From an uncultured delta proteobacterium (GTDB taxonomy: Bacteria; Desulfobacterota; WTBG01; CAIYCZ01): 64,000 bases of DNA. A model generated the notes under the pieces. It saw only the letters and a list, made by a program, of their open reading frames with translations, ran no database searches and was not told the DNA's origin. Shown here piece by piece: positions 5,412 through 54,227 of the stretch (within the stretch, counting starts at the first letter, position 1; every line of letters begins with the position of its first letter). The position numbers and the translations under genes were made by a program. The stretch is taken from positions 1 to 64,000 of the forward strand of contig CAWDOY010000008.1 in assembly GCA_963803975.1 (NCBI GenBank), written 5' to 3'.

Positions 5412-7544
5412 TTAGTTTGCCAGGTCCTCAAAGTATCCGTTGTTGCGATAGCGATCGTTCAGCTCGCCGATTTTGCCCTTGTTCCAGCTCGACACCTTGG
5501 TGAAGTATCCGGTGATGCGGGTGATGCCCTCAACATCAGTGGAGCTGCAGTCCTTGTAACCGCAGGTATTAGAGAGCCCCCTGCTGGTTCTGCCGCAGGT
5601 ATTGCAGCTGGTGAACTCAGGAGAAAAGGCAATCTGGTCGTTCAGCGTGCCCTTGAAGACCTTGACCACGAAATTGGCCAGGGACTCTTTTGAGGGCCGT
5701 GACTCGCCAAGCCAGATATGGGTGAGTGAGCCTGCCTCGATAATGGGGTGAAAGAGCCCTTCCATCCGCACCCGGTCAATGGGATTGGTCTTTGACGCGA
5801 CCGCAATATAGGTGGAATTGGTATAGTAGACCTGGCCGGTGGCGATGTTTCCTTTAACCATCCGCAGCGATTCCGGCGAGTGGTATTTCAGATCAAGCTT
5901 GGCAAAGCGGTAGGCCGTGCTCTCTGCCGGGGTCTGCTCCAGCACAAAGCGCATGCCGTGCTGCTGCGCTGAATTTATCAGTTATAAGTTTCATGTGGGC
6001 AATTACCTTCAAACCGAACTTGAGCGACCGCTTGGACTCGTGGAGCTCTTCTCCGGTATGAATCTTGACCAGCTCATTCAGCCCCACCATGCCGATGAGA
6101 TACGTTACCCGCTTCATCCGCAAATACGGGGCGCCGTCCTTATTCATGGTGAGAAGCGCCAGGGGGCCGCTTTCTCCGAGGGCCAGGAGCTGCTCAATAA
6201 AGGCCTTCTTTTCCAGATGGGCTTTTACTGACAGTTCCACCATGGCGCTTAAATTGGCAAACAGGGTGGTGTCATCCTTGTTGCTCTTGTAGCCGAGGCG
6301 CGGCAGGTTGATGGTGACATTCTGCAGCGCGCTGTAGCGCATCTTCCAGGGCTGCTTGGCGTCATCCAGATCGCTCTGCTCGAGCTTGAAGCTCAAGCGG
6401 CAGCACTCGGAAATTTTCGCGGTGTTGCCCCGGTCAAAGACAAAATAGGTATTGCCCTTCTCGCTCGCCACATCGCAGATATGGAGCAGGAACTCCTGGT
6501 GCCCTTCGGTGCGGAAAAATTTCTCCGTGATGTGCACCAGCGGCTTCGGGAAGAAGAACGGCCTGCCCGGTGCCGTCGCCTTCCTTGAAGACATCAAACA
6601 GATACCAGACAAACCGCTGGGCCTCTTTCTCATACTCCGCATAGGTCTTGCCGGTGAACTCCCCGCCCGGGCCCGATGGCAGGCACATCCTCAAAATGCT
6701 TGGGAACCTCCCAGTAAAGATTGATATCAGTAAAAATCGCCTGCCCGCCCCGTGCCACTGCCTGCTGGGAGAACTCAAAGATGAGCATCTGGGCAAGCTG
6801 CTTGACCTCACGGTCGGTTTTACCCACTAAATAGGGCGCAAAGAAGAGATTGATCGCGTCCCAGCCAATGGCGCCGGCAAAATTACTCTGCAGGGCTGCG
6901 GCAAATTTAACCATGTGCGCAAGCAGCACTTCCGGGTGCTTGGCCGGCTTGGCCATGGAAAGGGAATTGGGCAGGTTCAGGCCGAACTTCTTAATATATT
7001 CAAGTGACTGGCCCGAGCAGTAGGGCCGGTCGATGAACCCGAGATCATGCAGGTGAATGTCGCCCCGCATGTGGGCATCGCCCACGTCTTCGGAAAAAAC
7101 CTTGAGCAGGGCGTATTCTTTTTTAATATTTTCCGCGAGCGTCAGGTTGGTTGCCTCAGGGCCGTGCGGCACATTGGCGTTTTCCTTGTTCGGGTGCAGG
7201 ATGAGCTGGTCAACGTCCCAGAGCGGCACGCCAAGACGCGTATGCATCTTGCGGGCTTTCTCCAGCCCCCGCTCTAACAGCTTGGCATCAACCAGCTCCC
7301 TGATGAGCGGAGCCGTCACCCAGGTAATTTTTGACGCAAGGACAAAATCCTGAACTTCCCGGCTGATCTCCTCGGCAGTATCTACATCAATATATGTTTC
7401 GCGAACCAGCGCATCAACAATCTTCTGCCGGTTCCAGTCCGCAATATCATCCCCTGATGTCCTGACAAAAAGCGCCAGGTCAGTAGTTTCATTATTATTG
7501 CTGATTTCTTCCTTCTCCCAACGAGCTTCTACTACGGTCCCCAT
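5412..7544 (-). CDS. nrdD: class III anaerobic ribonucleoside-triphosphate reductase with ATP cone (three ORF pieces)
   Basis: ATP cone (VRTSGDDIADWNRQKI), GDIHLHDL, SECCRL finger loop, EQTPAES, YYTNS, Zn-site cysteines, RITGY glycyl-radical motif; RBS GGAGGGG before ATG at 7544. Confidence 0.92.
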
Positions 7545-7605
7545 GAACCCCCTCCCAATATATTTAATTATCGATCCACATATCATCTTATTTTGTACGC
7601 GATGA

Positions 7606-7634
7606 TAACTACACCACAATATGTAGTGCGTCAA
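7606..7634 (-). promoter_or_regulatory. sigma70 promoter of nrdD with an NrdR box in the spacer
   Basis: Minus strand TTGACG-17 nt-TAGTTA; 7614-7629 CCACAATATGTAGTGC matches the NrdR box consensus acaCwAtATaTwGtg. Confidence 0.75.
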
Positions 7635-7792
7635 GGGAATTATCCTGGAAATAAAAAAATATTTTTTCGCCTTGGTAAACAATAATTTTATCAAGGATAA
7701 ACATGATTTTAGATATATTATGGGGTTTTAAGGGAAAGAGGCATCCAGGGAGAGAATGATGGTTGGCAGAGTGTACTCATGAAAAGGTGTTT

Positions 7793-8287
7793 TTACTGGG
7801 CTTTTCGTGCCCTTAAAATGACAGCCCTTGATTCATATAATATATTGAAAAATCTTCTTAAAAAGCCTCCTTTCCGCGGCCGCTGATTCTTTAAAAAGCT
7901 TTTCAGCTGTGATTTCTTCTCCGCGTCAATATTTAGAAATACAATGCCCACCTGAAACATGAAGTTTTCACTCTCAGGGGCGAGGTCATACCAGCATACC
8001 TCGCCAATAATTTTTAATGTTTTTTCAGTACCATAGAGCTCTACTTCCAAATCAAGCCGGTTCTTTTGCGCGCCCGGGCTCCCGGAAAGCATATGCACGC
8101 CGTCAATTTCAACCTGCCTGGTTTCTATGCATATGCCCTCCTCCGAGATATTTCTGCTTTTGACTATTATTGACGTCTGTCCTCCCGGCACCTTATCTTC
8201 AGTTATTATGGTAACTTTTACCTGAAGCGGTATCTCCAGTCTGAAAAATTTTCTTTTCTGTACGCCGCGGTGTCCTGTTCTTCGCAT
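7793..8287 (-). CDS. PilZ domain protein
   Basis: QKRKFFR (RxxxR), NISEEG (NxSxxG), GEVCW and GIVF strands. Confidence 0.85.
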   Translation of the reverse strand: MRRTGHRGVQKRKFFRLEIPLQVKVTIITEDKVPGGQTSIIVKSRNISEEGICIETRQVEIDGVHMLSGSPGAQKNRLDLEVELYGTEKTLKIIGEVCWYDLAPESENFMFQVGIVFLNIDAEKKSQLKSFLKNQRPRKGGFLRRFFNILYESRAVILRARKAQ

Positions 8288-8291
8288 TGTT

Positions 8292-8780
8292 TTATTTAGC
8301 CGTGGAACTGCTCTTTATTATACGCTGAATAATCGTAGTGGTTGACAAGCCATCGACAAAAGGAAGGGATATCACTTTGCCGCCGGCGCCTTCCACCACA
8401 TCCCTGCCAACGATGGTGTCAACGGTCCAGTCCCCGCCTTTAACCAGCACATCAGGCTTTAGTTCAGTAATCACCCGCAGGGGATCAAGCTCATTAAATA
8501 TAATTACATAATCAACAGACTCAAGGCCTGCCATGACCTCGGCGCGCTCATCCTCCGGGACATACGGCCGCTCCTGCCCTTTCAGTGCCTGGACAGAACT
8601 GTCGCTGTTGATGGCTACCACCAGAACATCCCCCTGTTTTTTAGCTTCCCGGAGCAGCCGCACATGGCCGACATGGATAATATCATAGCAGCCGTTGGTG
8701 AAGACAACCTTTTTATTCGCGCGCTTAAGCTCCGCTCTTACTTCTTTCAGCTCTTCAAGATTTTTTACTTTATCCTGCAA
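8292..8780 (-). CDS. rfaE2: D-glycero-beta-D-manno-heptose 1-phosphate adenylyltransferase
   Basis: VFTNGCYDIIHVGH, NSDSSV..LKG..RP, PDVLVKGGDW, STTTII. Confidence 0.92.
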   Translation of the reverse strand: MQDKVKNLEELKEVRAELKRANKKVVFTNGCYDIIHVGHVRLLREAKKQGDVLVVAINSDSSVQALKGQERPYVPEDERAEVMAGLESVDYVIIFNELDPLRVITELKPDVLVKGGDWTVDTIVGRDVVEGAGGKVISLPFVDGLSTTTIIQRIIKSSSTAK

Positions 8781-8792
8781 CTGCGTTACTCC

Positions 8793-8984
8793 GTGAAACG
8801 TGAAACGTGAAGGTCGAAGAGTTCAGCTCGTACTCGTAGCCACTTCACCGCATGTCACGTCTGCCTCGGTGCCTTCGCACTCGTTACTCCCCATTCCGCA
8901 CTCAGCATTCCGCAATTTCAATTGCCTGTGGCCCCTGATTCCCTCTTGCCTCTTCCTATTCCCTATTGCCTAATTGCCTGACGC
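8793..8984. repeat. intergenic degenerate 7-mer tandem repeat tract
   Basis: (GTGAAAC)2 GTGAAG, CTCGTA, CATTCCG and TTGCCT(A/C) units. Confidence 0.6.
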
Positions 8985-10829
8985 CTAACTCTCTTTCGCC
9001 GTGCAGCGCAGCACTTCGTGATAGGTGGTGGCACCCTTCAAGAGCTTTGCTAGGGCATTTTCCCGCAGCGGCTTCATGCCCCTCTGGCAGGCCTGCTTTT
9101 TTATTGCTTCAGCCGGTATCTTTTCATCAATCATCTTTTTAATCTCATCGTCAACCGGAAGAACCTCAAACACTCCCTGCCGGCCGTAGTACCCGGTCTG
9201 GCGGCAGAACCTGCAGCCTTTGCCGCGCTTCAGTTCGATATCGTGTTTGAAGGACACGTCAATCCCGAGGCTCCACAAATCCGCTCCTGACAGGGAATAG
9301 GTTTCCGCGCAATGCGGGCACACGGTCCGCACCAGCCGCTGGGCAACTACCCCAAGCAGCGTTGAGCTGATGAGAAACGGCTCCACCCCAAGATCAAGAA
9401 GCCGCGTAACAGAGGACGCCGCATCATTGGTGTGCAGGGTGCTCAGCACCAGGTGCCCGGTGAGCGCTGCCTGAATGGCCTGGTGCGCTGTCTCCGCGTC
9501 GCGTATTTCTCCAATCATGATAATGTCCGGGTCCTGCCGCAGAATGTTTCGCAGAATGGAGCTGAAGGTAATATCCACTGTCGGCTGCACTGCTATCTGA
9601 TTGAAATCCTCGCAGACCATTTCAATGGGGTCCTCAACCGTGGTGATATTATTTTCCGGGGTAGAAAGTGAGCGCAGCGCTGAATAGAGGGTGGTGGTTT
9701 TGCCGCTGCCGGTCGGACCGGTCACCAGGATAATGCCGTGCGGCTGCTCGAGGAAATTGCGGAACTGTATGAGATCATGGGAGGAAAACCCGAGCTCTTC
9801 CAGATCCTGAAACAGAATCGAGGAATTGAGAATTCTCAGGACCGCTTTTTCACCAAACGCGACCGGTATGGTGGATACTCTGGTTTCCACGTCCCGCTCC
9901 TCGCCCTGCAGCTTGATGCGGCCGTCCTGGGGTCGCCTTTTTTCCGCGATATTGAGCCGTGAGAGGGCTTTGATCCGGGAAATTACCGCGTTATGCACCA
10001 CCCGGGGCATGGTATAGATATTGTGCAGAATGCCGTCAATCCTCAGGCGCACGATGCCCATGTCCCGTTTCGGCTCAATATGAATGTCGCTGGCCCGCTG
10101 CTCAAGCGCATAGTGGAACAGGTACTCTACGGCGTTTTTTATGTGCTTATCGGTTGACTCGATTTCACTGACAGATTTTAACTTTGAATACTGTTCAAGG
10201 TTGCCGAGATCCACCAGCGGCGAAACCAGCTCCTGCTCCGCGAGCACGATGGAGCGCTTAAACCCGTAAAACTCTCTGATCAGCTTGATGATGTCTGATT
10301 TGGTGCTGACCACCGGAGAAATTTTTAGGCTGCTCACCCGCATGATGTCGCTGATCAGCTCCTCGTTGAGCGGGTCCACCATGGCGATTTTCAGTTCACC
10401 GGAGTCACGGGAGATCGGAACAGCCAGATTTTTTATGGCAAAATTTTTCGGCAGCGTCTTGGTCACCACCTCCAGGTCAAGCTCCAGCGGATCGATTTTC
10501 TTAAACGGGATGCCGAGCCCCGCTGCTACCTCCCTCATGACCTTCTCTTCGGTCAGGGGCGCTTCCATGCCGTCGTGCTGGACGGTGAGATTGAATGCAG
10601 CGACAATATCGGACGGTAAAACGTCGTAGCGGGTTCCGTTGCCGTTGGCGCTTATCTCATTGATTTTTTCGAGCCGTTTTGTCTGCAGCTCCTTCTCGTC
10701 AAGGATGCGCTGGTGCTGCTCACCGGTTATAATATTTCTCTGGAGCAGGATATCGCATACGTGGTTGAGTGTTAATCCCTGTTTCATACTGCACTCTGTT
10801 AATACATTAGATGGTTCACAATAAATCAT
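8985..10829 (-). CDS. GspE/PilB-family secretion or pilus assembly ATPase
   Basis: ASDIHIEP, PQDGR, Walker A GPTGSGKTTT, TVEDPIE, LRQDPD, TGHLVLSTLH, CPHC/CRFC zinc motif. Confidence 0.93.
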   Translation of the reverse strand: MIYCEPSNVLTECSMKQGLTLNHVCDILLQRNIITGEQHQRILDEKELQTKRLEKINEISANGNGTRYDVLPSDIVAAFNLTVQHDGMEAPLTEEKVMREVAAGLGIPFKKIDPLELDLEVVTKTLPKNFAIKNLAVPISRDSGELKIAMVDPLNEELISDIMRVSSLKISPVVSTKSDIIKLIREFYGFKRSIVLAEQELVSPLVDLGNLEQYSKLKSVSEIESTDKHIKNAVEYLFHYALEQRASDIHIEPKRDMGIVRLRIDGILHNIYTMPRVVHNAVISRIKALSRLNIAEKRRPQDGRIKLQGEERDVETRVSTIPVAFGEKAVLRILNSSILFQDLEELGFSSHDLIQFRNFLEQPHGIILVTGPTGSGKTTTLYSALRSLSTPENNITTVEDPIEMVCEDFNQIAVQPTVDITFSSILRNILRQDPDIIMIGEIRDAETAHQAIQAALTGHLVLSTLHTNDAASSVTRLLDLGVEPFLISSTLLGVVAQRLVRTVCPHCAETYSLSGADLWSLGIDVSFKHDIELKRGKGCRFCRQTGYYGRQGVFEVLPVDDEIKKMIDEKIPAEAIKKQACQRGMKPLRENALAKLLKGATTYHEVLRCTAKES

Positions 10830-10917
10830 ACTCTTTCATCGTACCAAACAGCTCTTTTATTTAACGTTAATATAGCATAAGTCCTTCAAGCTCAATAAGT
10901 TTTCAGTAATGAGCAGC

Positions 10918-10947
10918 AAAAAAGGCACGGTTGCAGATAACCGTGCC
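10918..10947 (-). terminator. rho-independent terminator closing the bilin-reductase-like operon
   Basis: GGCACGGTT/AACCGTGCC stem followed by a T-run on the minus strand, 30 nt after the radical SAM stop. Confidence 0.75.
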
Positions 10948-10976
10948 CCTGGCAGTTGTCAGCGTTTCCGAACTAT

Positions 10977-12410
10977 TTAAAAGCCTTCTTCCGCTTCCCC
11001 GCTCATTTTTTTTACATCAGAGGCCATTTCTATGGCCATTTTGATATATTGTTTGGCCATGGCCCGGCGGAAGCGGTTGCCGGAGAACATGAACTGCAGC
11101 TGTTTCAGGAATGCTTTGGGCCGCACATAGGTCTTTACCCAGAAGCCGCTGAAGATCTCCTGCAGCTTTTCCGGCGGGATATGGGTCTTTATGACTGATT
11201 TGCCGAAGCCGTAATCCTTCCAGTTAAAGCTGGTTATCATATCCCTGGCCTTCAAATCCTCATACATGTCCGTGCCCGGGAAAGGCACTGCCAGGGAGCC
11301 GACGATAAACGAGCAGTGGGCTGGATAGAGATATTTCCCGTAGTCAAGGATCGCCTGCAAAGATTCCTCGGTATCCTCAGGCAGCCCGAATAAGAGATAC
11401 ACCGACACCATGATGTCCAGCTCATACTCCAGGGTATCGAGCATTTTCTCAATAGCGCTGGCGTCAAACCCCTCTTTGCCGCATAATTGCCTCATTTTGG
11501 GGTCAGGCGTCTCCAGGCCGATCACAATCTTAATCAGCCCGTTTTTCTTCATCCGCGGCCATAGGTCCTGATAGCTCAAAAAAATATCTTCCCGGGTTTC
11601 ATAATACCAGTAGAGTTTCTCCCCGCATTTTTCAAGCTCATCCAGGAATCCCTCCATCTGGGAGCGCACCAGAAACGAGGCATCATCCTGAAAAAAGAAG
11701 GTGTCGTGATTAAAGTTTTTCTTCACCCACACCATCTCTTCCACGATTTTAGCGGGATTTCTGCGGCGCACGCCTTCATGGACCTTCCAGGTAATGCAGT
11801 AGGGGCATTTATACGGGCAGCCCCGCGAGGAAGAGGTGGCAAGCAGCCGGTTGCCGACCCAGTGGTACTTATCCACCGGAAACAGGTGCCAGGCGGGAAA
11901 CGGCAGGGAATCAATATCAGCGATGGGCGGCCGGTCGGGGTTGCGCACGATGGCTCCATCGCGGTCGCGGAAGGTTATGCCCTGCACCGTGGCAAGAGGC
12001 TCCCCTGCCTCAAGCGCCCTGCACAGATGGCTGATGGTCGCCTCGCCCTCGCCGCGCACCACAATATCGAGTTCCGGGCACTCCTCAAGTGATTCGCGGT
12101 CAGTAAAGCTGAAGTGCGGGCCCCCGGCCAGGGTTATAATATCAGGGCTTATCTCTTTTTTGGCGCGGCGGAAAATGTTGAGGGAGCGCGGCGCCACCGG
12201 CGTCTGGCCGCCGGCGCCGATCATATGCGGGCTGAAGGCGCGGATGCGGGCGATGATATCATCATAGGACAGGTCTTCCGCTGCAGCGTCTATAACCTTC
12301 ACCTCCACCCCGTCCTGCTCAAGCACTGCTGCAATATAGGCAAGCCCCAGGTTGGGTGAAAGCTGAACCTTTTGATGATACATCGGTGGCTGAATTAAAA
12401 GAACCCGCAT
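10977..12410 (-). CDS. cobalamin-dependent (class B) radical SAM enzyme
   Basis: N-terminal B12-binding domain (PNLGLAYIAA, GGPHFS, VVRGEGE), SRGCPYKCPYC, FQDD, GLET, PFPGT; start taken at MRVLLIQPP. Confidence 0.9.
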   Translation of the reverse strand: MRVLLIQPPMYHQKVQLSPNLGLAYIAAVLEQDGVEVKVIDAAAEDLSYDDIIARIRAFSPHMIGAGGQTPVAPRSLNIFRRAKKEISPDIITLAGGPHFSFTDRESLEECPELDIVVRGEGEATISHLCRALEAGEPLATVQGITFRDRDGAIVRNPDRPPIADIDSLPFPAWHLFPVDKYHWVGNRLLATSSSRGCPYKCPYCITWKVHEGVRRRNPAKIVEEMVWVKKNFNHDTFFFQDDASFLVRSQMEGFLDELEKCGEKLYWYYETREDIFLSYQDLWPRMKKNGLIKIVIGLETPDPKMRQLCGKEGFDASAIEKMLDTLEYELDIMVSVYLLFGLPEDTEESLQAILDYGKYLYPAHCSFIVGSLAVPFPGTDMYEDLKARDMITSFNWKDYGFGKSVIKTHIPPEKLQEIFSGFWVKTYVRPKAFLKQLQFMFSGNRFRRAMAKQYIKMAIEMASDVKKMSGEAEEGF

Positions 12411-12599
12411 GAGTGTCTTTCTGCTCTGTTCATAAGTGGTGTGGCTCGTGACCCGTGACCTGTGACTGGTTATCAGTGAAACGTGGAAGGTGAAATTCCG
12501 ACTCGCCGATTCATAGCTCATTCAGCCTTTTTGACCTCTTTGCCGATCTGCATCTCTGCATATTCCGCAATCTGCAATCTCAACTCCCCAACTTCCCTG

Positions 12600-12878
12600 C
12601 TACCGGTGGCGCATCGGCACCTTCGCCTGGTCAGTCGGCTGCTGGCCTTCAAACGGCGGAAACACTTTAATTGCTTCATACCCGCAGTGAAATTCACACA
12701 TATGGCACTTCAGGCAGAAGCTCTGGTCCGGCGCACAGCTCTTTTTCTTTTTGCCCACCACTTTTAATTCAAGCAGATTGACCGGGCACACTGATATGCA
12801 GGTGCCGCAGCCCACACACTTTTCTTCATCAATTCTGATTTCTATCTGAACAATATCCTGTTCGGTTACTTTTGGCAT
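12600..12878 (-). CDS. 2[4Fe-4S] ferredoxin
   Basis: CVGCGTCISVCP and CLKCHMCEFHC; RBS AGGAGG. Confidence 0.9.
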   Translation of the reverse strand: MPKVTEQDIVQIEIRIDEEKCVGCGTCISVCPVNLLELKVVGKKKKSCAPDQSFCLKCHMCEFHCGYEAIKVFPPFEGQQPTDQAKVPMRHR

Positions 12879-12941
12879 GGTATATCCTCCTTAAAATAAA
12901 TCAGCCGTCAGCTGAGCAGCTGATCAGCTATCAGCTTTTAT

Positions 12942-13721
12942 TTATGACAGTCCCTTCATCACCAGAGACCCAAGCTCTTTCCCGTAACAGCGGAGCATTA
13001 CCGATGTCACCGGATCCCGATCAAACAGCCAGTCCTGAAGTATCCGCTTGCGTTTGATGCAGTATTCCCGGTGGGCAGGGTCCTTTATGGGCTGTGCTGC
13101 CTTCACCGTTTCAGCCCACAGCGCAAGGTATCGCAGGGGCAGGTTGAGGATGCGCTCCCGGTATTCCGGCGTTCCTCCTGCCTGGGTCCGGAAAAAGCTG
13201 TAATAGGGGCCGGTAAGGGTCCTGAACCAGACATGCAGCGACGGCGGGCCGATAATGTCATAATATTCCCTGAAGGTATTATCCAGCTTATCCAGATAGT
13301 TCAGCCGGTAGTCTTCATTGAGCACGAGGTCACACAGGGGCATGTGATCAACCATGCCGTGCCCGGGGCCCCGTCCCTCGTCCCAGTCAATGAGCATTAC
13401 CGGGAAATCATAATCATCCCGCGGAAAGCCGATGACCGCCCCTGATATGGACCGCCCGGAAAGCACCTGCCACCAGATGCAGACCTTCTCGATTTTGTCT
13501 GACTGAAATACCCGCACCGCACCCCTGGCCATGGGGGATTCAAGATTTTCCAGCAGAAGGTCCATATTGTATCCCTGATACTGGCCCGTTAACGGCTTTA
13601 AATCAAGGGTGCGCAGTATCTCCCAGCACTTTTCAGGAAACGGCCGGATGTTGGGAACATTTTTAGCCGGCCAGGTATCGCACTTGAACCCCACTTCTTT
13701 TTCCAAATGGTACTCTGTCAT
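12942..13721 (-). CDS. ferredoxin-dependent bilin reductase / red chlorophyll catabolite reductase fold protein (copy 2)
   Basis: FPRDDYDFPVMLID, DHMPLCDLVLNEDY (recalled RCCR motif DLVLNPDY), WFR...GPY, YL.LW...V..AQP, RDP...M.R.YG.E (recalled PebA/B motif KDPARGML.R.YG.EW). Confidence 0.75.
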   Translation of the reverse strand: MTEYHLEKEVGFKCDTWPAKNVPNIRPFPEKCWEILRTLDLKPLTGQYQGYNMDLLLENLESPMARGAVRVFQSDKIEKVCIWWQVLSGRSISGAVIGFPRDDYDFPVMLIDWDEGRGPGHGMVDHMPLCDLVLNEDYRLNYLDKLDNTFREYYDIIGPPSLHVWFRTLTGPYYSFFRTQAGGTPEYRERILNLPLRYLALWAETVKAAQPIKDPAHREYCIKRKRILQDWLFDRDPVTSVMLRCYGKELGSLVMKGLS

Positions 13722-13761
13722 GGCATGCCTCCCTGTTAAAAATTAGTGATTATATTCATGC

Positions 13762-13998
13762 TTAAAAGTTTCTCCCGCCTTCCTGTGGCGGAAGTATGGT
13801 AATTGCCTTTACCGGGCAGTTATTCTGACACCCATGGTCTTTCATGCACAGTTCTATGTCGTTCACGCAGGGGACTTTTTTGCCGTTTTCTTCCACATAC
13901 TCAATGATGTCCGGCGGACAGATGCGGGCACAGATGCCGCCGCATGTATCTGAACCTATGCAGAGCTCTTTATTGACGATAAACTGTATTTCAGCCAT
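13762..13998 (-). CDS. atypical dicluster ferredoxin
   Basis: CIGSDTCGGICARICP and CMKDHGCQNNCP. Confidence 0.85.
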   Translation of the reverse strand: MAEIQFIVNKELCIGSDTCGGICARICPPDIIEYVEENGKKVPCVNDIELCMKDHGCQNNCPVKAITILPPQEGGRNF

Positions 13999-14043
13999 GG
14001 GAGTCCCTTTTCATATTAGCCCTGTTAGAGGTTTGGCAGAACT

Positions 14044-14253
14044 TCATCGATCTGCGGGATACACCCTGATAGCCTTCTCCGGGCACATCTGCTGGCAGCT
14101 GTGGCATTCAATGCAGACATCAAGGTCCACCACTTCCACAATCCCTTTTTCTTCATTGATGCGTATGGCATCGACATTACAGTACTCAACGCATATGCCG
14201 CAGCCGATGCATTTTTCTTCATCAATAACAATGCTGTGCTCATGCTCGCTCAT
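14044..14253 (-). CDS. 2[4Fe-4S] ferredoxin
   Basis: CIGCGICVEYC and CIECHSCQQMCP; RBS GGAGG. Confidence 0.9.
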   Translation of the reverse strand: MSEHEHSIVIDEEKCIGCGICVEYCNVDAIRINEEKGIVEVVDLDVCIECHSCQQMCPEKAIRVYPADR

Positions 14254-14258
14254 TGCTG

Positions 14259-14675
14259 TTACCCTCCGCACTCTTTCTTCCGGGCAATGACCATCTTCTG
14301 GAACGCTTCATGGGAATCATAGTAGTCCTGCATGCCGAAGATATACGGCACCAGGGCAAAAACATGATGGCGGGCAAGCTCCATGTCACCCTTGACCAGC
14401 TCCGTGTAGGTGTACATCATCTTGGCCTCAAGGGAGTTGTCAATGACATCAAGCAGCACCTTTGCTTTCAGCTTCATGCCCACCTGGGAGCCGGGGTGCT
14501 CGCCCTCTTCCACTACTATCACGCCCTTATCCAGGCGGGAGGTAACAGCCGGCTGGTCATCCTCGAACCTCCAGAAGATTATATCCCCGTCCAGCTCAAC
14601 CATCTGGGCCTTGAATTCTTCATCTTTGTTGACCAGCTCAGCACCTTTTTTCATAATTTCCAGCATTGACGCCAT
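14259..14675 (-). CDS. SCP2 sterol/lipid-binding-like protein
   Basis: Pattern F...L.G.I.W.F......G...V.EG......L....L..VI...L......V.GD..LA resembles the SCP2 fold; RBS AGGAGG. Confidence 0.55.
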   Translation of the reverse strand: MASMLEIMKKGAELVNKDEEFKAQMVELDGDIIFWRFEDDQPAVTSRLDKGVIVVEEGEHPGSQVGMKLKAKVLLDVIDNSLEAKMMYTYTELVKGDMELARHHVFALVPYIFGMQDYYDSHEAFQKMVIARKKECGG

Positions 14676-14765
14676 AGCATCCCTCCTTTTATTGTATTTA
14701 ACATAATTGTCTTGAACATTTTCTTTGTGCCTTTGTGCCTGTTGCCTCCCCTGCGGTCTCTGTTT

Positions 14766-15521
14766 TTATGTATATCCCACGACACTCTTTTTCCCCAGCT
14801 CCGGACCAAGGGTGCGCATCAGAACAGAGCCAAGGGGATCCCGCTGCCGCAGCTGGGTCATCATGATTCGTTTCCTTCTGTTTACATACTGCCGGTACTG
14901 TTCATCTTTCATTGGCTCCGCCTTCCGCACCAGCTCAACCCAGTATTTAATATATTCCATCTCACATTTGAGGGCGCGCTCCCGCTTTTCGTTGGGGCTG
15001 TCAAAAATATGATAGGGGCCCTGCATGGCGCGAAACCAGCGGTAGGTTGAATTGACCCCGATTAAATCCTTGTACTCATTATAGACCGGCTCAATCCCAT
15101 CCTGATATTTCTCGCGATACCACTCATATTCAACCACGTCCGCAATGGGCATCACATCAATGATGATATGCAGCCGCTTTTTTGACTCCTCCCAGGCAAT
15201 AATCAACGCCGGAAAGTCATAATCATCATTGGGCCAGCCCACCCAGCTGCCGCCTGCTATACTTTTAGATATAAGCAGCCACATAAGGGCGAGCTTTTCG
15301 ATCTTCTCGGTGTAGAAGTGCCGGAAGGTTCCCTCAGCCATCGGCTGTTTGACCATGCCCTGGATTGGCGTTAAATCTTCCCCTTCAACCTGGGTCAGCT
15401 TTTTCAGGTTTAATTCTTTCAGCAGCGGCCAGGTGCTCTCCGGAAAGGGATTAGGCTCAAAACCCTTTGTCTGCCACAGGCTTTTGGAATCGAATCCAAT
15501 ATCAGTGATTATCTCGCTCAT
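14766..15521 (-). CDS. ferredoxin-dependent bilin reductase / RCC reductase fold protein (copy 1)
   Basis: Paralog of 12942-13721 (shared PFPE..W..L..L.LK.LT, P.A.G..R.F...KIEK, P.DDYDFP, D.MP..D.V, WFR...GPY, RKRI, RDP..SV..R..G.ELG). Confidence 0.75.
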   Translation of the reverse strand: MSEIITDIGFDSKSLWQTKGFEPNPFPESTWPLLKELNLKKLTQVEGEDLTPIQGMVKQPMAEGTFRHFYTEKIEKLALMWLLISKSIAGGSWVGWPNDDYDFPALIIAWEESKKRLHIIIDVMPIADVVEYEWYREKYQDGIEPVYNEYKDLIGVNSTYRWFRAMQGPYHIFDSPNEKRERALKCEMEYIKYWVELVRKAEPMKDEQYRQYVNRRKRIMMTQLRQRDPLGSVLMRTLGPELGKKSVVGYT

Positions 15522-15632: not shown

Positions 15633-16592
15633 TTACAGTGCAAATATCTTTGTCGCAAGCCCCAGAAGCCCGATAATTGCTCCGGCGATTACATCCCCGT
15701 ACTTTTCAAAAAATTCAAGCTTAATCCAGGAAAGGCCCAGGTACCCCAGCCACGTAAACAGCACAATAGTCCCCAGGGTGCCGACGGTAAAGGATATATT
15801 TACCAGGATGACCGCCATGGTGCCGTATTTGACCGCGGCAAAGGTCAGGGGCAGAAGCGCGATGCAGGGCGTTAAGCCAAGAATGGCAACCAGACCCCAG
15901 CCGGCCCGCTTGTCCTTAAGATCAGCCGTGCCCTGCGCATTGTTCTCATCGCCATGGCTGTGGACAAGACCGTCAATACCTTTTACGCGGTGTTTATGCT
16001 TGTGTTCATGCAGCAAATCTTCATGAAAGTGCTTATGCTCATGATCTTTTTCAGTGGTTGCATCAAAGCTGTGCATGTGATCATCATGCGTGACGTACAC
16101 CACGATATCCAGCTTATGGAGGGAAATAATAAGCCTGCTGCCAATACTGAAACTTACATCCTGGTCATGACTGTGCGCTTGTCCCGGCAGATCATACGCA
16201 TGGGCATTAATGCCGAGCCATTTATTGATAATTGGTATGCCGTGGGAGTGGCCCTGGGCTCCCACCTGCTGCTTGTAGAGGGCATAGGCAGCATAGCCAA
16301 ACCCGAAGATTATCAGGAGCCAGGGAGTTGCCTCTTCAAAGAGCAGCGCAATATCTTTTGATGCCCCTTTTTCAGCAAACACGCCGACCAGCCCGATCAC
16401 CACTGAGGTGCCCACATGCCCGATTCCCGCAAGCAGCGCGAGCAACAGCACCCATGAGGTCTTCCATTTGTTGGCCCTGCCAACCATGACAAACGGAAAC
16501 CAGTGATCAGGTGATACCGTGTGGGTTGCAGCCAAAGTAAACGTAGCTACCAGCAGGGTCCAGAGTCCTGCCTGGGTTAAATCAATATCCAC
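15633..16592 (-). CDS. His-rich Ni/Co transporter (NiCoT/RcnA/UreH-like)
   Basis: HTVSPDHW signature, GHVGTS, long central His-rich loop, TPC motif, about 6 TM helices. Confidence 0.75.
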   Translation of the reverse strand: MDIDLTQAGLWTLLVATFTLAATHTVSPDHWFPFVMVGRANKWKTSWVLLLALLAGIGHVGTSVVIGLVGVFAEKGASKDIALLFEEATPWLLIIFGFGYAAYALYKQQVGAQGHSHGIPIINKWLGINAHAYDLPGQAHSHDQDVSFSIGSRLIISLHKLDIVVYVTHDDHMHSFDATTEKDHEHKHFHEDLLHEHKHKHRVKGIDGLVHSHGDENNAQGTADLKDKRAGWGLVAILGLTPCIALLPLTFAAVKYGTMAVILVNISFTVGTLGTIVLFTWLGYLGLSWIKLEFFEKYGDVIAGAIIGLLGLATKIFAL

Positions 16593-16621
16593 GCAACTCC
16601 CTTCTCCATGAACTTCTTACA

Positions 16622-18548
16622 TTACTTTTTAAAGCGATAGCCGATGAGGCGGGAAGAATTACCCACCACAATGATTGAGCCGATGTTATGAATAATAGCC
16701 CCCACTACCGGACCAATGCCCCCGGTTGAGGCAAGGATTAACGCAACGCCGTTTATGGCAATTGAGATAAAGATACTCTGTTTAATAACAGCGACCGTCT
16801 TTCTTGAAAGCGCAATGGCTTCACTCACCTTGCTGAGATCATCGCCGGTCAGGGCAATATCAGCTGCCTCAATCGCCGCATCAGTGCCGATTGCTCCCAT
16901 GGCAATGCCCACATCCGCCTCAACCAGCGCAGGGGCATCATTGATCCCGTCTCCCACCATGGCCACTTTTTCACCCTGGGCCTGCAATTTCTTTATGTAG
17001 GCAAGCTTTTCTTCCGGGAGAAGATCAGCGACTATGTCATTCAACCCCGCTCCTTCAGCGATTGCCCGCGCAACCTGTTGATTGTCTCCGGTCAGCATCA
17101 GGATTTTTTTTATGCCCAGGCTTCGTATATCCTGTATTGACTCGTGAACATCTTCTTTCAGCGTATCAGCTATGCCGATGCCGCCGATCACCTTTCCGGC
17201 AGCAGCAACCAGTATCGGCGTTGAGCCGGAAGCTGTCATGTCACTTAAAAACTGCCGTGCTTCAACGGGCAGGGTAATATTCTTTTCTGTAAATAACCGT
17301 TCATTGCCCACAATGATTTCCTGCCGGTCTTTTGTAGCTATGATACCCCGGCCCACAATAACTTCAGTGTCATCAGGGTCAAACGGCCATATCTCTTCTT
17401 TTCTGCAATACTTCAGAATGGCGTCAGCCAGGGGATGCTCTGAATGACGCTCTGCAGTGCCGGCACTCTGCAGCACCTCCTGCTCCGGCACGCCGGAAAA
17501 ACCGCGCACTGTTTTAACCGTCGGGGTCCCGTAGGTCAGCGTTCCGGTTTTATCAAAGACAAAGGTTGTCAGCTTCCCGATTGCTTCTAAAACCGCTCCT
17601 CCCTTGATAAGAATTCCCCGGCGGGCGGCGTTCCCTATTCCTGCCACCACGGCAGTGGGTGTCGCAATGACCAGCGCACAGGGACATGCCACAACCAGCA
17701 CCGTCACTGCCCGGATAATCTGCCCGGTTAAAAGCCAAACCAGGGCTGCCAGCGCCAGCATGGCCGGCGTAAACCAGACGGCAAAGGTATCGGCAATGCG
17801 CTCAATCGGGGGCTTTTCAGCCTGTGCTTTACGTACCAGCTCAATGATTTTTGCTATTGCTGTTTCCGTGCCGACGCGGGTTACCGCTATTTTGAGCACG
17901 CCGAGCTGATTAAGGGTCCCGCCGAAGACTTCATCTCCCGGTTCCTTTGAAATCAAGGCTGACTCGCCGGTAATGGGCGACTGGTTTATTTCCCCGCGCC
18001 CCTCCTGTATAAGGCCGTCAACAGGAATTTTTTCACCGGGCCGCACTATCACCAGGTCGCCAACGCGCACCTCATCGATGTCAATTATTCTCTCGTGCCC
18101 GTTGCGCAGCACCCGGGCCGTTTCAGACTCAAGCTGCATGAGCGCGCGCACCGCCTCACCGGTCCTGGCGATGGTAATATCCTCCAGCAGCTCGCCGATG
18201 TTCATCATGAGAACAACAATGGCCCCGGCAAGATATTCTCCAACCCAGATAGAGGCAATCAGGGCGCAGGTCACCAGCACTTCGGCATTCAGTTTTTTAT
18301 TGCTTATGGTCGAGACGACGGAATTTCTGACAATGGGATAACCGGAGAGTACGGCAGCGGCAAGGGCGAGGTACATTCCCGGGGGCGTGTTCGCGCCCAG
18401 CAGCCAGGCCCCGGCAATGAGAATAACGCAGGCAATGGGATTAATGAATTCCTGGTAGCGGTCAATAAATGCATCAAAGCCGGGTGTGCCCGCCTGACGC
18501 AGAAACCATCAATTCCTGTTCCGATAAGAGCTTCCCGCGCGACATCAT
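16622..18548 (-). CDS. heavy-metal P1B-type ATPase (N-terminal frameshift near 18485)
   Basis: TGES, CPCAL, DKTGT, SEHPLA, GDGINDAP, HNIGS; reading frame extends upstream of 18376 as GFDAFIDRYQEFINPIACVILIAGAWLLG. Confidence 0.92.
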
Positions 18549-18555
18549 GCATGGG

Positions 18556-19297
18556 CTAATCATTCCTCCACGAAAAATTAAGCCGCAAGAAACTTCCGAT
18601 GAGCAGGAACAGGGCAACCAGGGCCACCGCTGTGAAACGCCCCATGAAAAGCCCGGCAAGCAACACGGCTCCCGCAAGAATATCAGCGTTAACCGTTCTT
18701 TTACCTATGCACTCAAACACAGCATTCTTCATGAGCGGGAAAATACCGATTATCGCCGCGCATACCAGCATGCCGTCTGACAGGTATCCGGGCAGCAGCT
18801 TAAAATACCCCGCGGCAATTAAAACACCCATCAGCCCCGCAGCAAACCAGTCCCGTGCCGGATCTCCAAACACCTTGTGCATGGCAGTCGTATGCTCCGG
18901 ATGGTGGGAGTGAAAATGACCGTGATAAAAATTATGCCCGTGGTCGTGGACATGGGTAAAAGCGCGGTCTTCAGTGCTCTCCGCGATCATGGCTGTGAAC
19001 ATGCAAATCATCCTCATGCTCTTCATATGCAGCATCGTCATGCTCGTGCTGATGCCCATGAGGGGTTTCAAGGTCACGATGATGGTCGGGAGCATGCTGT
19101 TCATGGTCAGTATCATGCTCGTGTTCATGATGCTCATGGTGCTCAGGGGAACCAGAATCATGGGCGCCGTGCCGGTCATGCTCATGGGCGTGTTCATCTC
19201 CTGAGCGCTGTTCTTCATGATCATGCCTTTGGCCGCTGTTTTTTATTTTTTTATTCTTACCCTGATACAGAAGTGAGTCCCGGTGAACATCATGCAT
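18556..19297 (-). CDS. His/acidic-rich membrane protein with P1B-ATPase-like N-terminal TM helices (frameshift near 18975)
   Basis: ORF 18971-19297 is His/Glu/Asp-rich and joins the His-rich plus 4-TM C-terminus of ORF 18556-19224; RBS AGGAGG. Confidence 0.7.
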
Positions 19298-19337
19298 GAG
19301 GCAGACCTCCTGAAAAACTCTAAAAACTAACTCATAG

Positions 19338-19793
19338 TTATATTTTCTTTAGTATCTGATAGGCCCCCTCCAGGTGGTTAAGAAGGGCTTTTTTTTCCGT
19401 CTCATCCAGTTTTGCGAAGAGCGCTTCAAACTCTTTTCTGCGCTTTTGGGTAAATTCCTGGCGGATTTTTTTACCTTTTTCAGTGAGGCGGACCTTTATA
19501 ATCCGCCGGTCTCCGTTGTCTTTGAAGCGTTCAGCAACGCCATCCCGCTCAAGCCGGTCAACCATGTCTGTTATCGTCGAGCTTTTGACCCGGGCATTCC
19601 TGCCCAGTTCTCCGATGGGGTATGCTTTGTTCGCGTCCTGAAAGGCGTACAATGATTTAATGATGGTGGGGGTTAAATCGGACGCCGAACTGCTGCTTCC
19701 TTTCTGGAAGACTGTTTTATTATAAAACTCATCAATAAAGTCCCGCACGATCAGCATCTGGGTATCAAGATTACTCGCTTTTTTCTTTTCCAT
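19338..19793 (-). CDS. MarR-family transcriptional regulator
   Basis: STITDMVDRLERDG, DRR....LT.KG winged helix; start MEKKK after GAGGG. Confidence 0.9.
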   Translation of the reverse strand: MEKKKASNLDTQMLIVRDFIDEFYNKTVFQKGSSSSASDLTPTIIKSLYAFQDANKAYPIGELGRNARVKSSTITDMVDRLERDGVAERFKDNGDRRIIKVRLTEKGKKIRQEFTQKRRKEFEALFAKLDETEKKALLNHLEGAYQILKKI

Positions 19794-19835
19794 ATCCCTC
19801 ACTTCTTTGCCGCGCGTTTTTTCTGTGTGCCTTTT

Positions 19836-19892
19836 TCCGTTTCCGGATATTCCGTATTCCGGAATATTAAAGCAGGAACATTTTCCTGTCAA
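19836..19892 (-). promoter_or_regulatory. sigma70 promoter and probable MarR operator
   Basis: TTGACA-17 nt-TAATAT on minus; perfect palindrome TATTCCGGAATA (19855-19866) overlapping the -10, with further TTCCG repeats. Confidence 0.7.
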
Positions 19893-20026
19893 GGAGTTTT
19901 TTAAAAAGCGGTGAATCGTTGCTGACGGGACCACGACCGTGCTGAAACAGCACGCAGGGTGAGAAAAAGGATGGAAGTTACCGGAATGCGGGAGCAGTGC
20001 TGAAAAACGCGGGACGATGGGGCCGG

Positions 20027-52220: not shown

Positions 52221-53309
52221 ATGACTGCATCAGTTGCAAAAAGGCTATCGTTTCTGGACCGGTTTTTAACCCTGTGGATTTTTCTTGCCATGTTCATCGG
52301 CGTTGGCTGGGGCTACCTGTTTCCAGGGGTTGTCAATTTCTGGAATCAGTTTCAGGTTGGCACAACCAACATCCCGATCGCCATCGGCCTTATCCTCATG
52401 ATGTACCCGCCCCTTGCAAAAGTAAAATATGAGGAGCTTGGAGAAGTGTTCAGAAATTACAGGGTGCTGGGGCTTTCTCTCGTTCAGAACTGGGTCATCG
52501 GCCCGATATTAATGTTCATTCTGGCAATACTTTTTCTCAGCGGTTATCCCGCCTACATGCAGGGCTTAATTATGATCGGCCTTGCCCGCTGTATTGCCAT
52601 GGTCATTGTCTGGAATGACCTTGCCAAAGGCGACACCGAATACTGCGCTGGACTGGTTGCTTTCAACTCCATCTTCCAGGTTCTTTTCTTTTCTGTGTAT
52701 GCATATATCTTTATCACAGTGCTCCCTCCCCTGCTTGGGCTTAAAGGAACTGAAGTCAATATCACCATCGGCCAGATTGCTGAAAGCGTTTTCATTTATC
52801 TGGGCATACCATTTATTGCCGGAGTAATTACCCGCTTCGTGCTTATCAATGTAAAGGACAAGAAATGGTATCATGAAAAGTTTATCCCGAAAATCAGTCC
52901 CATTACCCTTATTGCCCTGCTGTTCACCATACTGGTCATGTTCTCTCTCAAGGGCGAATACATTGTAAAGATTCCCTTTGATGTTGTCCGCATTGCCATA
53001 CCGCTGCTTATTTATTTTGTCATCATGTTCCTGGTGTCCTTCTATATGAGCAAAAAGGTTGGTGCCACCTATGCCCAGAGCGCGACCCTTTCCTTTACCG
53101 CTGCCAGCAACAATTTTGAGCTGGCCATTGCCGTGGCAGTTGCCGTGTTCGGCATCAACTCAGGCCAGGCATTTGCCGCAGTCATCGGTCCTCTGGTAGA
53201 AGTGCCGGTGCTCATAGGCCTGGTAAATGTGGCTCTCAGGTTTAAAGCAAAATATTTCCCATTGGCAGCAGAAACACCCGCTGGGGTCTGTCAAATTGAC
53301 TGTAAATAG
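52221..53309 (+). CDS. acr3: Acr3 arsenite efflux transporter
   Basis: [43 protein letters not shown]. Confidence 0.95.
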
Positions 53310-53459
53310 CTTTTAATGAGCCGGCGCTTTCTTGTGCAAAGGCAATTCTAACATGAAAGCGACTTCAGAGGCTGTTATTTCAAGGAAAACTGATCACGAC
53401 AAAAGAAGACTACTACTCAAAAAGAATTGGAGGCAGACAATGCATAGGAAGCATAGCCA

Positions 53460-54227
53460 GTGGAAGTTAATGTGTCGCGAAGGAAATGTCTTGGTGCCGG
53501 TCTGGCCATTGTAACTGCGGCAGCAGGAGCGGTCGGATGCAGCATGCTGCAGAAGTCTAAACCATCCGCTTCAGCCGCTGCAATTCCGTGGCCCTATGCG
53601 GAGTTTGATGTCGAGGCTGTGCGCAGGCGCGGATATGAGTACAAATATGAAAAGGCCTGTATGTACGGCGTAGCAAAAGCAATTGCAGTTACCGCAGCAG
53701 AACAGAACCCGTATCCGTGGAGCACCTTACCGCTTGATGCCTTTTCCTATGGCCGGGGCGGAGCTTACTCATGGGGCACTTTATGTGGTGCGCTTAACGG
53801 CGGTCTGCTGGTGCTGACACTGGCCCTCGGAGACTGTCCCCAGGCTGCAGATGACCTGATGACATGGTATATGAAGACGCCGCTTCCCTCTCTGAAGCAC
53901 GAGCAATACTGCCGATTCCGCAGTCAGCCGCTGGTAGTTCCGGGATCGCCGCTGTGTCATCAGTCTGTTGGCGCGTGGATAAAAACATCGGGAAAAGGCG
54001 TACATACTCCTGAACGTATCGAGCGTTGCGCAAAACTGTCGGGCGATACGGCGGCGTATGTGGCGGAAATCCTTAACCGTGCCCGTCGTGGGGGATATAA
54101 GCCGGCAGCGCTTCCCCCTGACCCTGTAAACGACTGTCTGGGATGTCATTTCGGCCCCAAGACAGACAGGGATGATACCATCTCCAAAATGCAGTGCCTC
54201 GATTGCCATGAGGATCATCGGACGTAA
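53460..54227 (+). CDS. split-Soret cytochrome c-like (C-GCAxxG-C-C family) exported diheme protein
   Basis: SRRK Tat-like signal, ACMYG, WGTLCGALNG, LCHQS, ERCAKL, C-terminal CLGCH and CLDCH. Confidence 0.8.
   Translation: MEVNVSRRKCLGAGLAIVTAAAGAVGCSMLQKSKPSASAAAIPWPYAEFDVEAVRRRGYEYKYEKACMYGVAKAIAVTAAEQNPYPWSTLPLDAFSYGRGGAYSWGTLCGALNGGLLVLTLALGDCPQAADDLMTWYMKTPLPSLKHEQYCRFRSQPLVVPGSPLCHQSVGAWIKTSGKGVHTPERIERCAKLSGDTAAYVAEILNRARRGGYKPAALPPDPVNDCLGCHFGPKTDRDDTISKMQCLDCHEDHRT

Follow-up and report, generated by a model that had tools for sequence, protein, structure and literature searches.

Within a 64,000-nt stretch of DNA from an uncultured delta proteobacterium (Desulfobacterota; assembly GCA_963803975.1, contig CAWDOY010000008.1, positions 1 to 64,000; hereafter the window), seven genes form an operon that encodes two paralogous proteins from the superfamily of ferredoxin-dependent bilin reductases (FDBRs), a small SCP2-like protein, three ferredoxins (Fd1 to Fd3) and a B12-binding radical S-adenosylmethionine (SAM) enzyme. 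The gene set is conserved far beyond chance, and the FDBR family in these bacteria is a lineage-restricted radiation. We propose, with a probability of roughly 0.45, that the operon acts without O2 on a lipophilic tetrapyrrole-type pigment, chlorophyll- or heme-derived. For this proposal we infer a substrate class, an order of steps and a carrier role for the SCP2-like protein: the carrier would take up the pigment, the radical SAM enzyme would modify it oxygen-free, and its saturation by the reductase pair would take two proton-coupled steps driven by ferredoxin.

The seven open reading frames (ORFs) run head to tail on one strand, window positions 15521-10977:

15521-14766, minus strand: FDBR-like 1, 251 aa
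14675-14259, minus strand: SCP2-like protein, 138 aa
14271-14044, minus strand: Fd1, ferredoxin 1, 75 aa
13998-13762, minus strand: Fd2, ferredoxin 2, 78 aa
13721-12942, minus strand: FDBR-like 2, 259 aa
12878-12600, minus strand: Fd3, ferredoxin 3, 92 aa
12521-10977, minus strand: B12-binding radical SAM enzyme, 514 aa with the first ATG as start (477 aa with an alternative ATG at 12410)
10949-10918, minus strand: intrinsic terminator hairpin and T run at the end of the operon, from sequence and folding

All seven genes lay where an earlier note on this DNA had placed them, and in the order it gave. Spacers, in gene order, are 90, -13, 45, 40, 63 and 78 (or 189) nt, the negative value being a 13-nt overlap between the SCP2-like and Fd1 genes. 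A good ribosome-binding site precedes the first gene, FDBR-like 1. The single terminator of the earlier note, at 10918-10947, corresponds to a 12-bp stem at 10949-10924 followed by six T to 10918; the surrounding 87 nt fold at -26.1 kcal/mol, with a z of -2.9 against shuffles. A consensus terminator scan did not report this hairpin.

FDBR superfamily membership and active sites

Membership of both paralogs in the FDBR superfamily, with its alpha/beta/alpha sandwich, was confirmed: the predicted-fold and Protein Data Bank (PDB) profile comparisons agree with the assignment that the earlier note had made from motifs. FDBR-like 1 scored 34.7 bits against the Pfam profile Fe_bilin_red (PF05996; cut-off 31), and FDBR-like 2 fell just short of that cut-off. 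Its AlphaFold model, from a 61-row alignment, had a pLDDT of 93.1 and a pTM of 0.91. In a Foldseek search of the PDB with this model, the best match was PebB (6qx6; E 1e-12, TM 0.77), followed by tomato HY2 (6kmd), PcyA and red chlorophyll catabolite reductase (RCCR) at E about 1e-9, all with probability 1.00. All 42 matches at E<=0.001 were FDBRs, RCCR or the FDBR-fold PcyA subunits of a chloroplast motor complex, and the characterised enzymes among them all act on tetrapyrroles. O2-dependent coproporphyrinogen oxidase appeared further down the list, at E 1.4e-3 to 3.7e-3. A profile of FDBR-like 1 orthologs matched PDB chains of HY2 (1e-7) and PebB (1.4e-4); the corresponding profile for FDBR-like 2 matched PebB (2.7e-17), HY2 (3e-14), PebA (4.7e-9), PcyA (2.5e-6) and RCCR (2.6e-4). 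The structure model was made for FDBR-like 1, and the fold of FDBR-like 2 rests on these profile matches together with 38% identity to FDBR-like 1.

The motifs by which the earlier note had recognised the family were found in part. YDFP and RDP are present in both paralogs; DLVLNEDY occurs in FDBR-like 2 alone, and the AEP of FDBR-like 1 is AQP in FDBR-like 2.

The clade around the pair is uncharacterised. A profile search of 1.84 billion representatives gave just 97 clusters at E<=0.001, and none of the 64 full-length related representatives that we scanned reached a curated FDBR cut-off. In a maximum-likelihood tree (52 rows, midpoint root, no named reference sequences), FDBR-like 1 and FDBR-like 2 are sisters with support 100/96. 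They lie inside a clade of 36 uncharacterised sequences (support 95/98), apart from the rows that score best on the PebA, PebB and PcyA models.

Active-site positions were anchored on Glu73, His85, Asp102 and Asp217 of Nostoc PcyA as listed in Table 2 of PMC13446030, and invariance was judged among orthologs aligned for each paralog separately:

Central Asp position (PcyA Asp105): Ala109 in FDBR-like 1, invariant; Asp112 in FDBR-like 2
His position (PcyA His88): Ser92 in FDBR-like 1; Ala95 in FDBR-like 2
Distal Asp position (AtHY2 Asp256, PcyA Asp220, PebS Asp206): D228 in FDBR-like 1, invariant; D236 in FDBR-like 2, invariant

The two distal residues, of which D228 belongs to the RDP motif, align with Nostoc PcyA Asp217. 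Judged from these residues, both paralogs look catalytically competent, with different residue sets. FDBR-like 2 keeps both acidic residues, as four-electron or two-site FDBRs do; FDBR-like 1 keeps the distal Asp alone, as do HY2-type A-ring reductases. Different residue sets are expected of two enzymes that perform different steps, and the two reductases probably do different jobs.

Conservation of the gene set

The core order FDBR1-SCP2-Fd1-Fd2-FDBR2-Fd3 was found without exception in 12 genome-contig loci and in 30 close metagenome loci, assessed as far as each contig of these 42 loci reaches. The relatives are metagenome-assembled genomes labelled Thermodesulfobacteriota, delta proteobacterium or Proteobacteria. 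Because the order recurs in both collections, the gene set is far beyond chance, and the synteny for which the earlier note had suggested a search is there.

The radical SAM gene follows this core less strictly. It comes after Fd3 in eight of the 12 genome loci; three of the other contigs end too early and one is a variant. Seven of the 30 metagenome loci were uninformative on this point. Among the 23 informative ones, the gene stands directly after Fd3 in 15, and the remaining eight run at least 0.9 kb past Fd3 without it. The eight loci without a downstream radical SAM gene represent one variant lineage. Within it, the upstream side can be seen at two loci, L038 and L072, which are 95–100% identical to each other and count as one observation; both carry a copy (59–62% identical) divergently upstream, with a MarR gene. 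Of the 21 genomes of the order, eight have the FDBR pair; these eight and one further genome, G006, have the radical SAM ortholog. This relative is 100% complete and has no FDBR pair; its radical SAM ortholog (71% identical) sits among glycosyltransferase, ArsR and SBF genes. Three relatives have further radical SAM copies, at 52–59% identity, away from FDBR genes.

Given the variant loci and the G006 ortholog, the radical SAM gene has a strong but not obligatory link to the core. One could go further and take the six-gene core as the functional unit, with the radical SAM gene a frequent neighbor that has a separate role. The eight informative metagenome loci without it downstream, the G006 ortholog and the unlinked copies in three relatives all speak for such a separation, as does the spacer ahead of the radical SAM gene, whose length and variability exceed those of every other spacer in the operon. 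We nonetheless consider it unlikely. One radical SAM subfamily adjoins the core in two different arrangements, and presence of the FDBR pair and of the radical SAM gene agrees in 20 of the 21 genomes of the order. The third ferredoxin gene lies directly before the radical SAM gene, and no terminator-like hairpin was found in the gap between the two, the single one found being that after the radical SAM gene.

Two side observations concern this gene. Upstream of the variant core (L038 1235-6028, L072 1245-5894), the radical SAM copy is accompanied by MarR, SAM synthetase and S-adenosylhomocysteine hydrolase genes. We considered the latter two (MetK and AhcY) as a hint of methyltransferase activity and rejected it, this being one observation and the genes being unlinked in the window's genome. 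In the window itself, the region from Fd3 to the conserved radical SAM start (12410-12600) has GTCAC-type short repeats and may encode a 37-aa N-terminal extension of low complexity; it is also where the contigs of related strains part from one another, their loose ends lying at 12425-12513.

In one study, three metatranscriptome libraries from sediment gave contigs that match all seven genes at 90–100% identity, covering 21, 28 and 22 of 30 bins per library. One spans Fd3-FDBR2 and another Fd1-SCP2. They hint weakly at in situ use of the operon; they show no level, strand or transcript ends, and uncovered stretches carry no meaning.

An FDBR radiation within one order

The genome to which the window belongs (4.25 Mb, 98% complete) gave 22 PF05996 matches. 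An iterated FDBR search found 30 ORFs, which form 19 groups at 90% identity after near-duplicate contigs and split genes were merged. FDBR-family matches were found in 31 of 41 relatives, at 6–18 per genome, in families f1, f2, f4 and f5; family f3 had none (0 of 8). In an even sample of 301 genomes across the phylum, nine had a match, every one within the window's order. The FDBR family here is thus a lineage-restricted radiation. With about 19 such genes in one genome, which the earlier note had not noticed, the question moves from one pathway to an entire enzyme family and what it acts on.

No source of the usual FDBR substrates was found. As the earlier note had supposed, heme oxygenase (PF01126) had no match in this 98%-complete genome, with positive controls matching in three genomes. 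A genome search for phytochromes, which the same note had suggested, gave no PHY domain. No ChuW/HutW gene scored above the cut-off of 400 in the genome; the best, at 212 bits, is a HemN-like gene outside the operon. Staygreen (PF12638) had no match in the genome either, and as the controls were silent too its absence is not demonstrated. Other tetrapyrrole-enzyme-like families are well represented, with five ferrochelatase-like, eight nitrogenase-like and seven FrhB/BciB-type matches. ALAD is present (G000:C1 209626-210568), split into two frames; tetrapyrrole salvage by an auxotroph was considered and rejected, ALAD being present. The window also encodes NrdD, a class III ribonucleotide reductase (5893-7694), likewise split into two frames and consistent with an anaerobic lifestyle. 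Such genes split into adjacent frames (NrdD, ALAD, a thiolase) occur alongside near-duplicate contig pairs (C4/C31, C24/C36, C39/C40), and the likely cause is not biology but the assembly, with its frameshift errors and strain variants.

These counts bear on the idea that sensors of the cell itself receive a bilin-type chromophore or cofactor from the operon, as is thought for the pre-PcyA clusters. In heterotrophic bacteria, pre-PcyA enzymes are active as bilin reductases, as described in PMC10151467 and PMC13446030. The genome, however, has neither heme oxygenase nor PHY domain, the genes next to the cluster include no globin (BBAG) or V4R gene, and a radiation of about 19 genes is hard to square with one chromophore. 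We regard this explanation as very improbable.

Ferredoxins

Three ferredoxin genes are interleaved with the reductase genes. Fd1 has two CxxCxxCxxxC motifs and scores 54.7 bits on Fer4 (cut-off 21.1) and 43.3 bits on Fer4_7. Fd3, of 2x[4Fe-4S] type with both Cys motifs, scores 49.2 bits on Fer4. Fd2 has eight Cys with atypical spacing and barely passes the Fer4 cut-off (22.0 bits), and is kept in all related loci at 61–99% identity. Its spacing (13762-13998) is Cx5Cx3Cx3CP plus Cx6Cx5Cx3CP instead of the usual CxxCxxCxxxCP.

Evidence that such ferredoxins partner FDBR-like enzymes comes from outside the operon. Natural fusion proteins with Fer4 at the N terminus and PF05996 at the C terminus (P0043, P0055) group with the operon's FDBR clade; in the tree, P0043 is sister to the paralog at G000:C4 8217-8942. 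In addition, 12 of 16 distant metagenome loci (30–40% identity) have a ferredoxin gene within about 120 nt of the FDBR-like gene, and the ferredoxins adjoining FDBR-like genes in distant loci are 39–48% identical to Fd3. Given these fusions and neighbors, the 4Fe-4S ferredoxins are, from sequence, the likely electron donors of the reductases, in line with the pairing suggested by the earlier note. A matching of individual ferredoxins to individual enzymes would be presumptive. As a side observation, a 2x[4Fe-4S] ferredoxin domain N-terminal to an FDBR-family domain was seen in the metagenome protein P0087 as well as in P0043 and P0055.

The SCP2-fold protein

The 138-aa protein scored 15.6 bits (E 0.021) on the SCP2 profile PF02036, below the cut-off of 21.3, and a profile of 18 of its homologs matched no SCP2 chain in the PDB by sequence. 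Its SCP2 fold was confirmed by a predicted structure. The AlphaFold model (pLDDT 88.5) had 18 Foldseek matches at E<=0.001, with SCP2 proteins at ranks 1 to 9 and 12 to 14 and three alkylsulfatase chains among the 18. The best were TT1886 (1wfr), 2cx7, UbiJ-SCP2 (6h6o) and AF1534, at TM 0.5–0.56. From the modeled fold, the protein is a predicted carrier of a hydrophobic ligand.

The protein is highly conserved: the matches listed by a homolog search (at least 120 clusters) were all close relatives, at 75–99% identity, and it was present in 6 of the 301 genomes sampled across the phylum, all within the window's order. The same genome contains an SCP2-like paralog (26% identity, E 3e-10) directly after a second FDBR-family pair, at G000:C25 52662-54602; the FDBR-SCP2 pairing has therefore been kept twice. 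A complex prediction for FDBR-like 1 with the SCP2-like protein reached a best score of 0.28 (mark 0.32), which counts neither for nor against binding.

The second locus (L013, G000:C25 46500-60500; genes at 6163-8103 and 8776-11517), where two FDBR-family genes precede the SCP2-like paralog, also has a corrinoid protein, a URO-D/MtaA-like methyltransferase and an MtrH-like fragment beside the pair, and a geranylgeranyl-reductase-like flavoprotein gene divergently upstream.

The B12 radical SAM enzyme

The last gene of the operon scores 86.7 bits on the B12-binding profile PF02310 (cut-off 32.1) and 57.5 bits on Radical_SAM PF04055 (cut-off 29.5), and its translation has a CxxxCxxC motif. By these features it is assigned to class B (cobalamin-binding) and to the BchE/HpnJ-like kind. 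The best NCBIfam model was BchE (TIGR02026), aligned over nearly the full length at 207.2 bits against a cut-off of 481, followed by HpnJ (159 bits), HpnR (132 bits) and a lipid B12 radical SAM model. Among solved structures, CysS and TokK, both methylases, and AprD4, a dehydratase, come closest (E 3e-11 to 2e-9). The chemistry of the enzyme cannot be assigned from its sequence. Among the 22 radical SAM relatives that phmmer detected in the genome, the operon enzyme alone lies within 6 kb of an FDBR gene.

The earlier note had proposed that this enzyme opens a heme or chlorin macrocycle anaerobically, in the manner of ChuW, and that the two reductases then act in sequence as PebA and PebB do. 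Such a route would account for a genome that has no heme oxygenase or ChuW/HutW and yet about 19 FDBR-family genes; the radical SAM gene is linked to the reductase pair in most loci, and the closest solved relatives of the reductases, PebB and HY2, act on linear tetrapyrroles. Ring opening by this enzyme nevertheless went unsupported. ChuW is a class C enzyme, whereas the operon enzyme is of class B and scores 15.5 bits on the ChuW/HutW model (TIGR04107; cut-off 400), and its BchE score too is far from the cut-off. We know of no class B radical SAM enzyme that opens a macrocycle. About 17 other FDBR-family genes of the genome have no such radical SAM neighbor, so ring opening could not be supplied to them in this way, and the ortholog in G006 occurs without the reductases. 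We therefore consider ring opening quite unlikely.

Nature of the substrate

FDBRs work via substrate radicals, with electrons supplied singly. An extended conjugated pigment is proposed as the substrate because the reductases are cofactor-free, the distal Asp is conserved and the characterised members of the fold act on tetrapyrroles; the SCP2 carrier suggests that this pigment is lipophilic. Two further points favor the guess of a tetrapyrrole: the radical SAM enzyme is BchE-like, and, as reported in PMC13446030, a pre-PcyA comes to bind the cyclic tetrapyrroles heme and protoporphyrin through single substitutions in its active site.

Several observations weigh against this proposal. It rests on the functions of other members of the fold. 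FDBR-like 2 scored 29.5 bits on PF05996, just below the cut-off of 31, and neither paralog reached the curated FDBR equivalog models, on which the scores were at most 22.2 bits against cut-offs of 263–327 (best were PebA, 22.2 bits with cut-off 263, and PebB, 21.9 bits with cut-off 327). The central Asp is missing in FDBR-like 1 and the His in both paralogs. RCC_reductase (PF06405) had no match in the window's genome, the control genomes being equally silent. The radical SAM ortholog of G006 stands apart from any FDBR pair. The loci with the full set all come from one order, so gene order may partly mirror common descent, and the RNA-library contigs could reflect DNA carry-over. SCP2 carriers are best known for quinone and sterol lipids. 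Finally, generic catabolic genes beside the paralogs and their distant relatives would also fit non-tetrapyrrole substrates. These catabolic neighbors include UbiD, AFOR, thiolase/SDR and a corrinoid methyltransferase set, with a HemF-like gene once. Other neighbors of the paralogs and distant relatives encode redox proteins (FMN reductase-like, PNPOx-like and geranylgeranyl-reductase-like flavoproteins), the regulators TetR and MarR, uptake and transport proteins (DUF1329/BNR uptake genes, MFS and TRAP transporters) and metal transport proteins (CDF, DUF4198).

The main rival to a tetrapyrrole, which we hold to be doubtful though not far-fetched, is a lipophilic conjugated substrate of another kind: a polyprenyl quinone, a carotenoid or other polyene, another isoprenoid lipid or a hopanoid. 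The SCP2 protein would then present the lipid as UbiJ and UbiT do, the radical SAM enzyme would methylate or rearrange it as HpnR and HpnJ do, and the FDBRs would have been recruited as cofactor-free reductases. UbiJ-SCP2 is indeed among the carrier's best fold matches, and the models that come next after BchE for the radical SAM enzyme are those of the hopanoid enzymes HpnJ and HpnR and of a lipid enzyme. Geranylgeranyl-reductase-like flavin adenine dinucleotide enzymes, DUF1329/BNR genes and TetR recur beside the paralogs and distant relatives, and the canonical His of both paralogs and the central Asp of FDBR-like 1 are missing. Against a lipid stand the characterised enzymes of the FDBR fold, all of which bind a tetrapyrrole, and the distal Asp for bilin protonation, invariant in both paralogs. 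The best radical SAM model, BchE, is moreover a tetrapyrrole enzyme, and the genome has the several other tetrapyrrole-enzyme-like families counted above.

The proposal of a tetrapyrrole-type pigment can be widened to the setting of these bacteria, at the cost of a good deal of certainty. The operon could be a module of an undescribed O2-free metabolism of chlorophyll- or heme-type pigments in anoxic sediments, working through the FDBR-fold radiation and 4Fe-4S ferredoxins; we think this wider version improbable, if far from negligible. The SCP2 protein would hold a chlorin or porphyrin that is lipophilic through a phytyl group or in some other way, the BchE-like enzyme would perform C-C or C-H chemistry that aerobes leave to oxygenases, and saturation of vinyl, methine or ring double bonds would fall to the two reductases. 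If true, this would provide missing enzymology for the early anaerobic alteration of chlorins toward sedimentary porphyrins.

FDBRs are textbook enzymes of oxygenic phototrophs, with substrates that come from oxygen-dependent ring opening. Here, sediment bacteria of strict-anaerobe type have 6–22 FDBR Pfam matches per genome and dedicated 4Fe-4S donors, in some cases as fusions with the reductase. Should the substrates prove to be tetrapyrroles, this would be a new anaerobic branch of pigment turnover, with a bearing on what becomes of chlorophyll and heme in sediments and on the origin of the FDBR fold before oxygen; should they not, the FDBR fold would have a second, unrecognised substrate world. 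In either case the operon offers a compact, conserved and expressible set of seven proteins for direct testing.

Neighboring genes

The operon is flanked on its 3' side by a gene for a PilB-type ATPase and on its 5' side by genes for a His-rich membrane protein and a P-type ATPase. The co-oriented genes directly upstream (15633-19934, minus strand) are those for the His-rich membrane protein, the P-type ATPase, a His/Met-rich membrane fragment and a MarR protein. The His-rich protein has an HxxxxDH motif, and in the Atlas clusters nearest to it a minority of the members have NicO/UreH or DsbD_2; the ATPase carries a CPC motif. Most related loci have the ATPase, the His-rich protein or both at the same upstream position. 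These metal-transport genes may reflect either metal handling tied to a metallated substrate or inherited synteny alone.

Farther along the window, 52221-59013 holds a likely arsenic-resistance cluster, with an SBF/Acr3-type permease, a C_GCAxxG_C_C redox protein, a SAM methyltransferase, an ArsP-type permease and an ArsA ATPase. At one metagenome locus (L088, 3365-4261 and 7480-8702), a coproporphyrinogen-oxidase-like gene (PF01218, 50 bits), whose product shares the FDBR fold, lies about 3.7 kb from a pair formed by a MarR gene and an FDBR-like gene.

Comparison with known systems

PebB and HY2 (GtPEBB 6qwq/6qx6; tomato HY2 6kmd) are the best sequence-profile matches of both paralogs, which are like them in the alpha/beta/alpha fold (TM 0.75–0.78) and share the distal Asp of the (K/R)DP motif. 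The paralogs differ in being 14–20% identical to these enzymes, in lying within a separate uncharacterised clade and in falling far below the equivalog cut-offs. PebB/HY2-type FDBRs usually take electrons from a plant-type 2Fe-2S ferredoxin, whereas the donors neighboring the operon's reductases are 2x[4Fe-4S] ferredoxins, and the genome has no heme oxygenase to supply biliverdin. The route to phycoerythrobilin through PebA and PebB likewise uses two co-encoded paralogous FDBRs with different catalytic residues; by analogy, the different residue sets of the operon's pair suggest two successive two-electron reductions. The operon's two proteins, however, are sisters of each other and do not belong to the PebA or PebB lineages, and their operon adds a carrier, three ferredoxins and the radical SAM enzyme.

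RCCR has the same fold as the FDBR-like proteins (Foldseek E about 1e-9; profile E 2.6e-4) and is ferredoxin-dependent, acting on a chlorophyll-breakdown substrate made by an oxygenase. ChuW/HutW with ChuY resembles the operon as an O2-free combination of a radical SAM enzyme and a reductase acting on a tetrapyrrole, but ChuW is a class C radical SAM methyltransferase, no ChuW/HutW scored above cut-off in the genome, and ChuY is not an FDBR. BchE, the anaerobic Mg-protoporphyrin monomethyl ester cyclase, shares B12-binding and radical SAM domains with the operon enzyme, which scores 207 bits on its model against the cut-off of 481.

UbiJ and UbiT, which serve ubiquinone biosynthesis, resemble the operon's SCP2 protein as small SCP2-fold proteins that work with soluble enzymes on a very hydrophobic substrate. 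The operon's protein is 15–19% identical to them, is confined to one order and has FDBR-fold partners rather than hydroxylases. The bilirubin reductases of gut anaerobes also reduce linear tetrapyrroles anaerobically, vinyl groups among them, and one of these, BilV, is an Old Yellow Enzyme flavoprotein (PMC13252198). The other, BilR, is an Old Yellow Enzyme flavoprotein too, and the two are unrelated to the FDBR fold.

The nearest published systems are the pre-PcyA clusters (Rockwell 2023, PMC10151467; Frascogna 2026, PMC13446030). Like the operon, these are conserved clusters in non-photosynthetic bacteria that combine FDBR-family genes with an Fe-S protein, and the pre-2 gene adjoins a gene for a B12-binding protein. 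As described there, heme oxygenase, BBAG globins and V4R proteins are encoded in the pre-PcyA clusters, and the enzymes reduce biliverdin. These partners are absent here, and the hosts are of strict-anaerobe type with the 6–22 Pfam matches per genome. A full-text literature search found nothing on this clade, on the gene combination or on any enzyme of anaerobic chlorophyll breakdown, in agreement with the earlier note, which had known of no description of the combination. Frascogna et al. 2026 (PMC13446030) mention two unplaced, uncharacterised FDBR clades, and the operon's clade may be one of them. The text of their supplement has no Desulfobacter-, Thermodesulfobacteriota-, Deltaproteobacteria- or Syntroph- terms, and the figures and full supplements of the paper may bear on novelty. 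What the operon shares with the known systems is the fold and the logic of electron transfer; what is new is the partners, the type of donor and the ecological setting.

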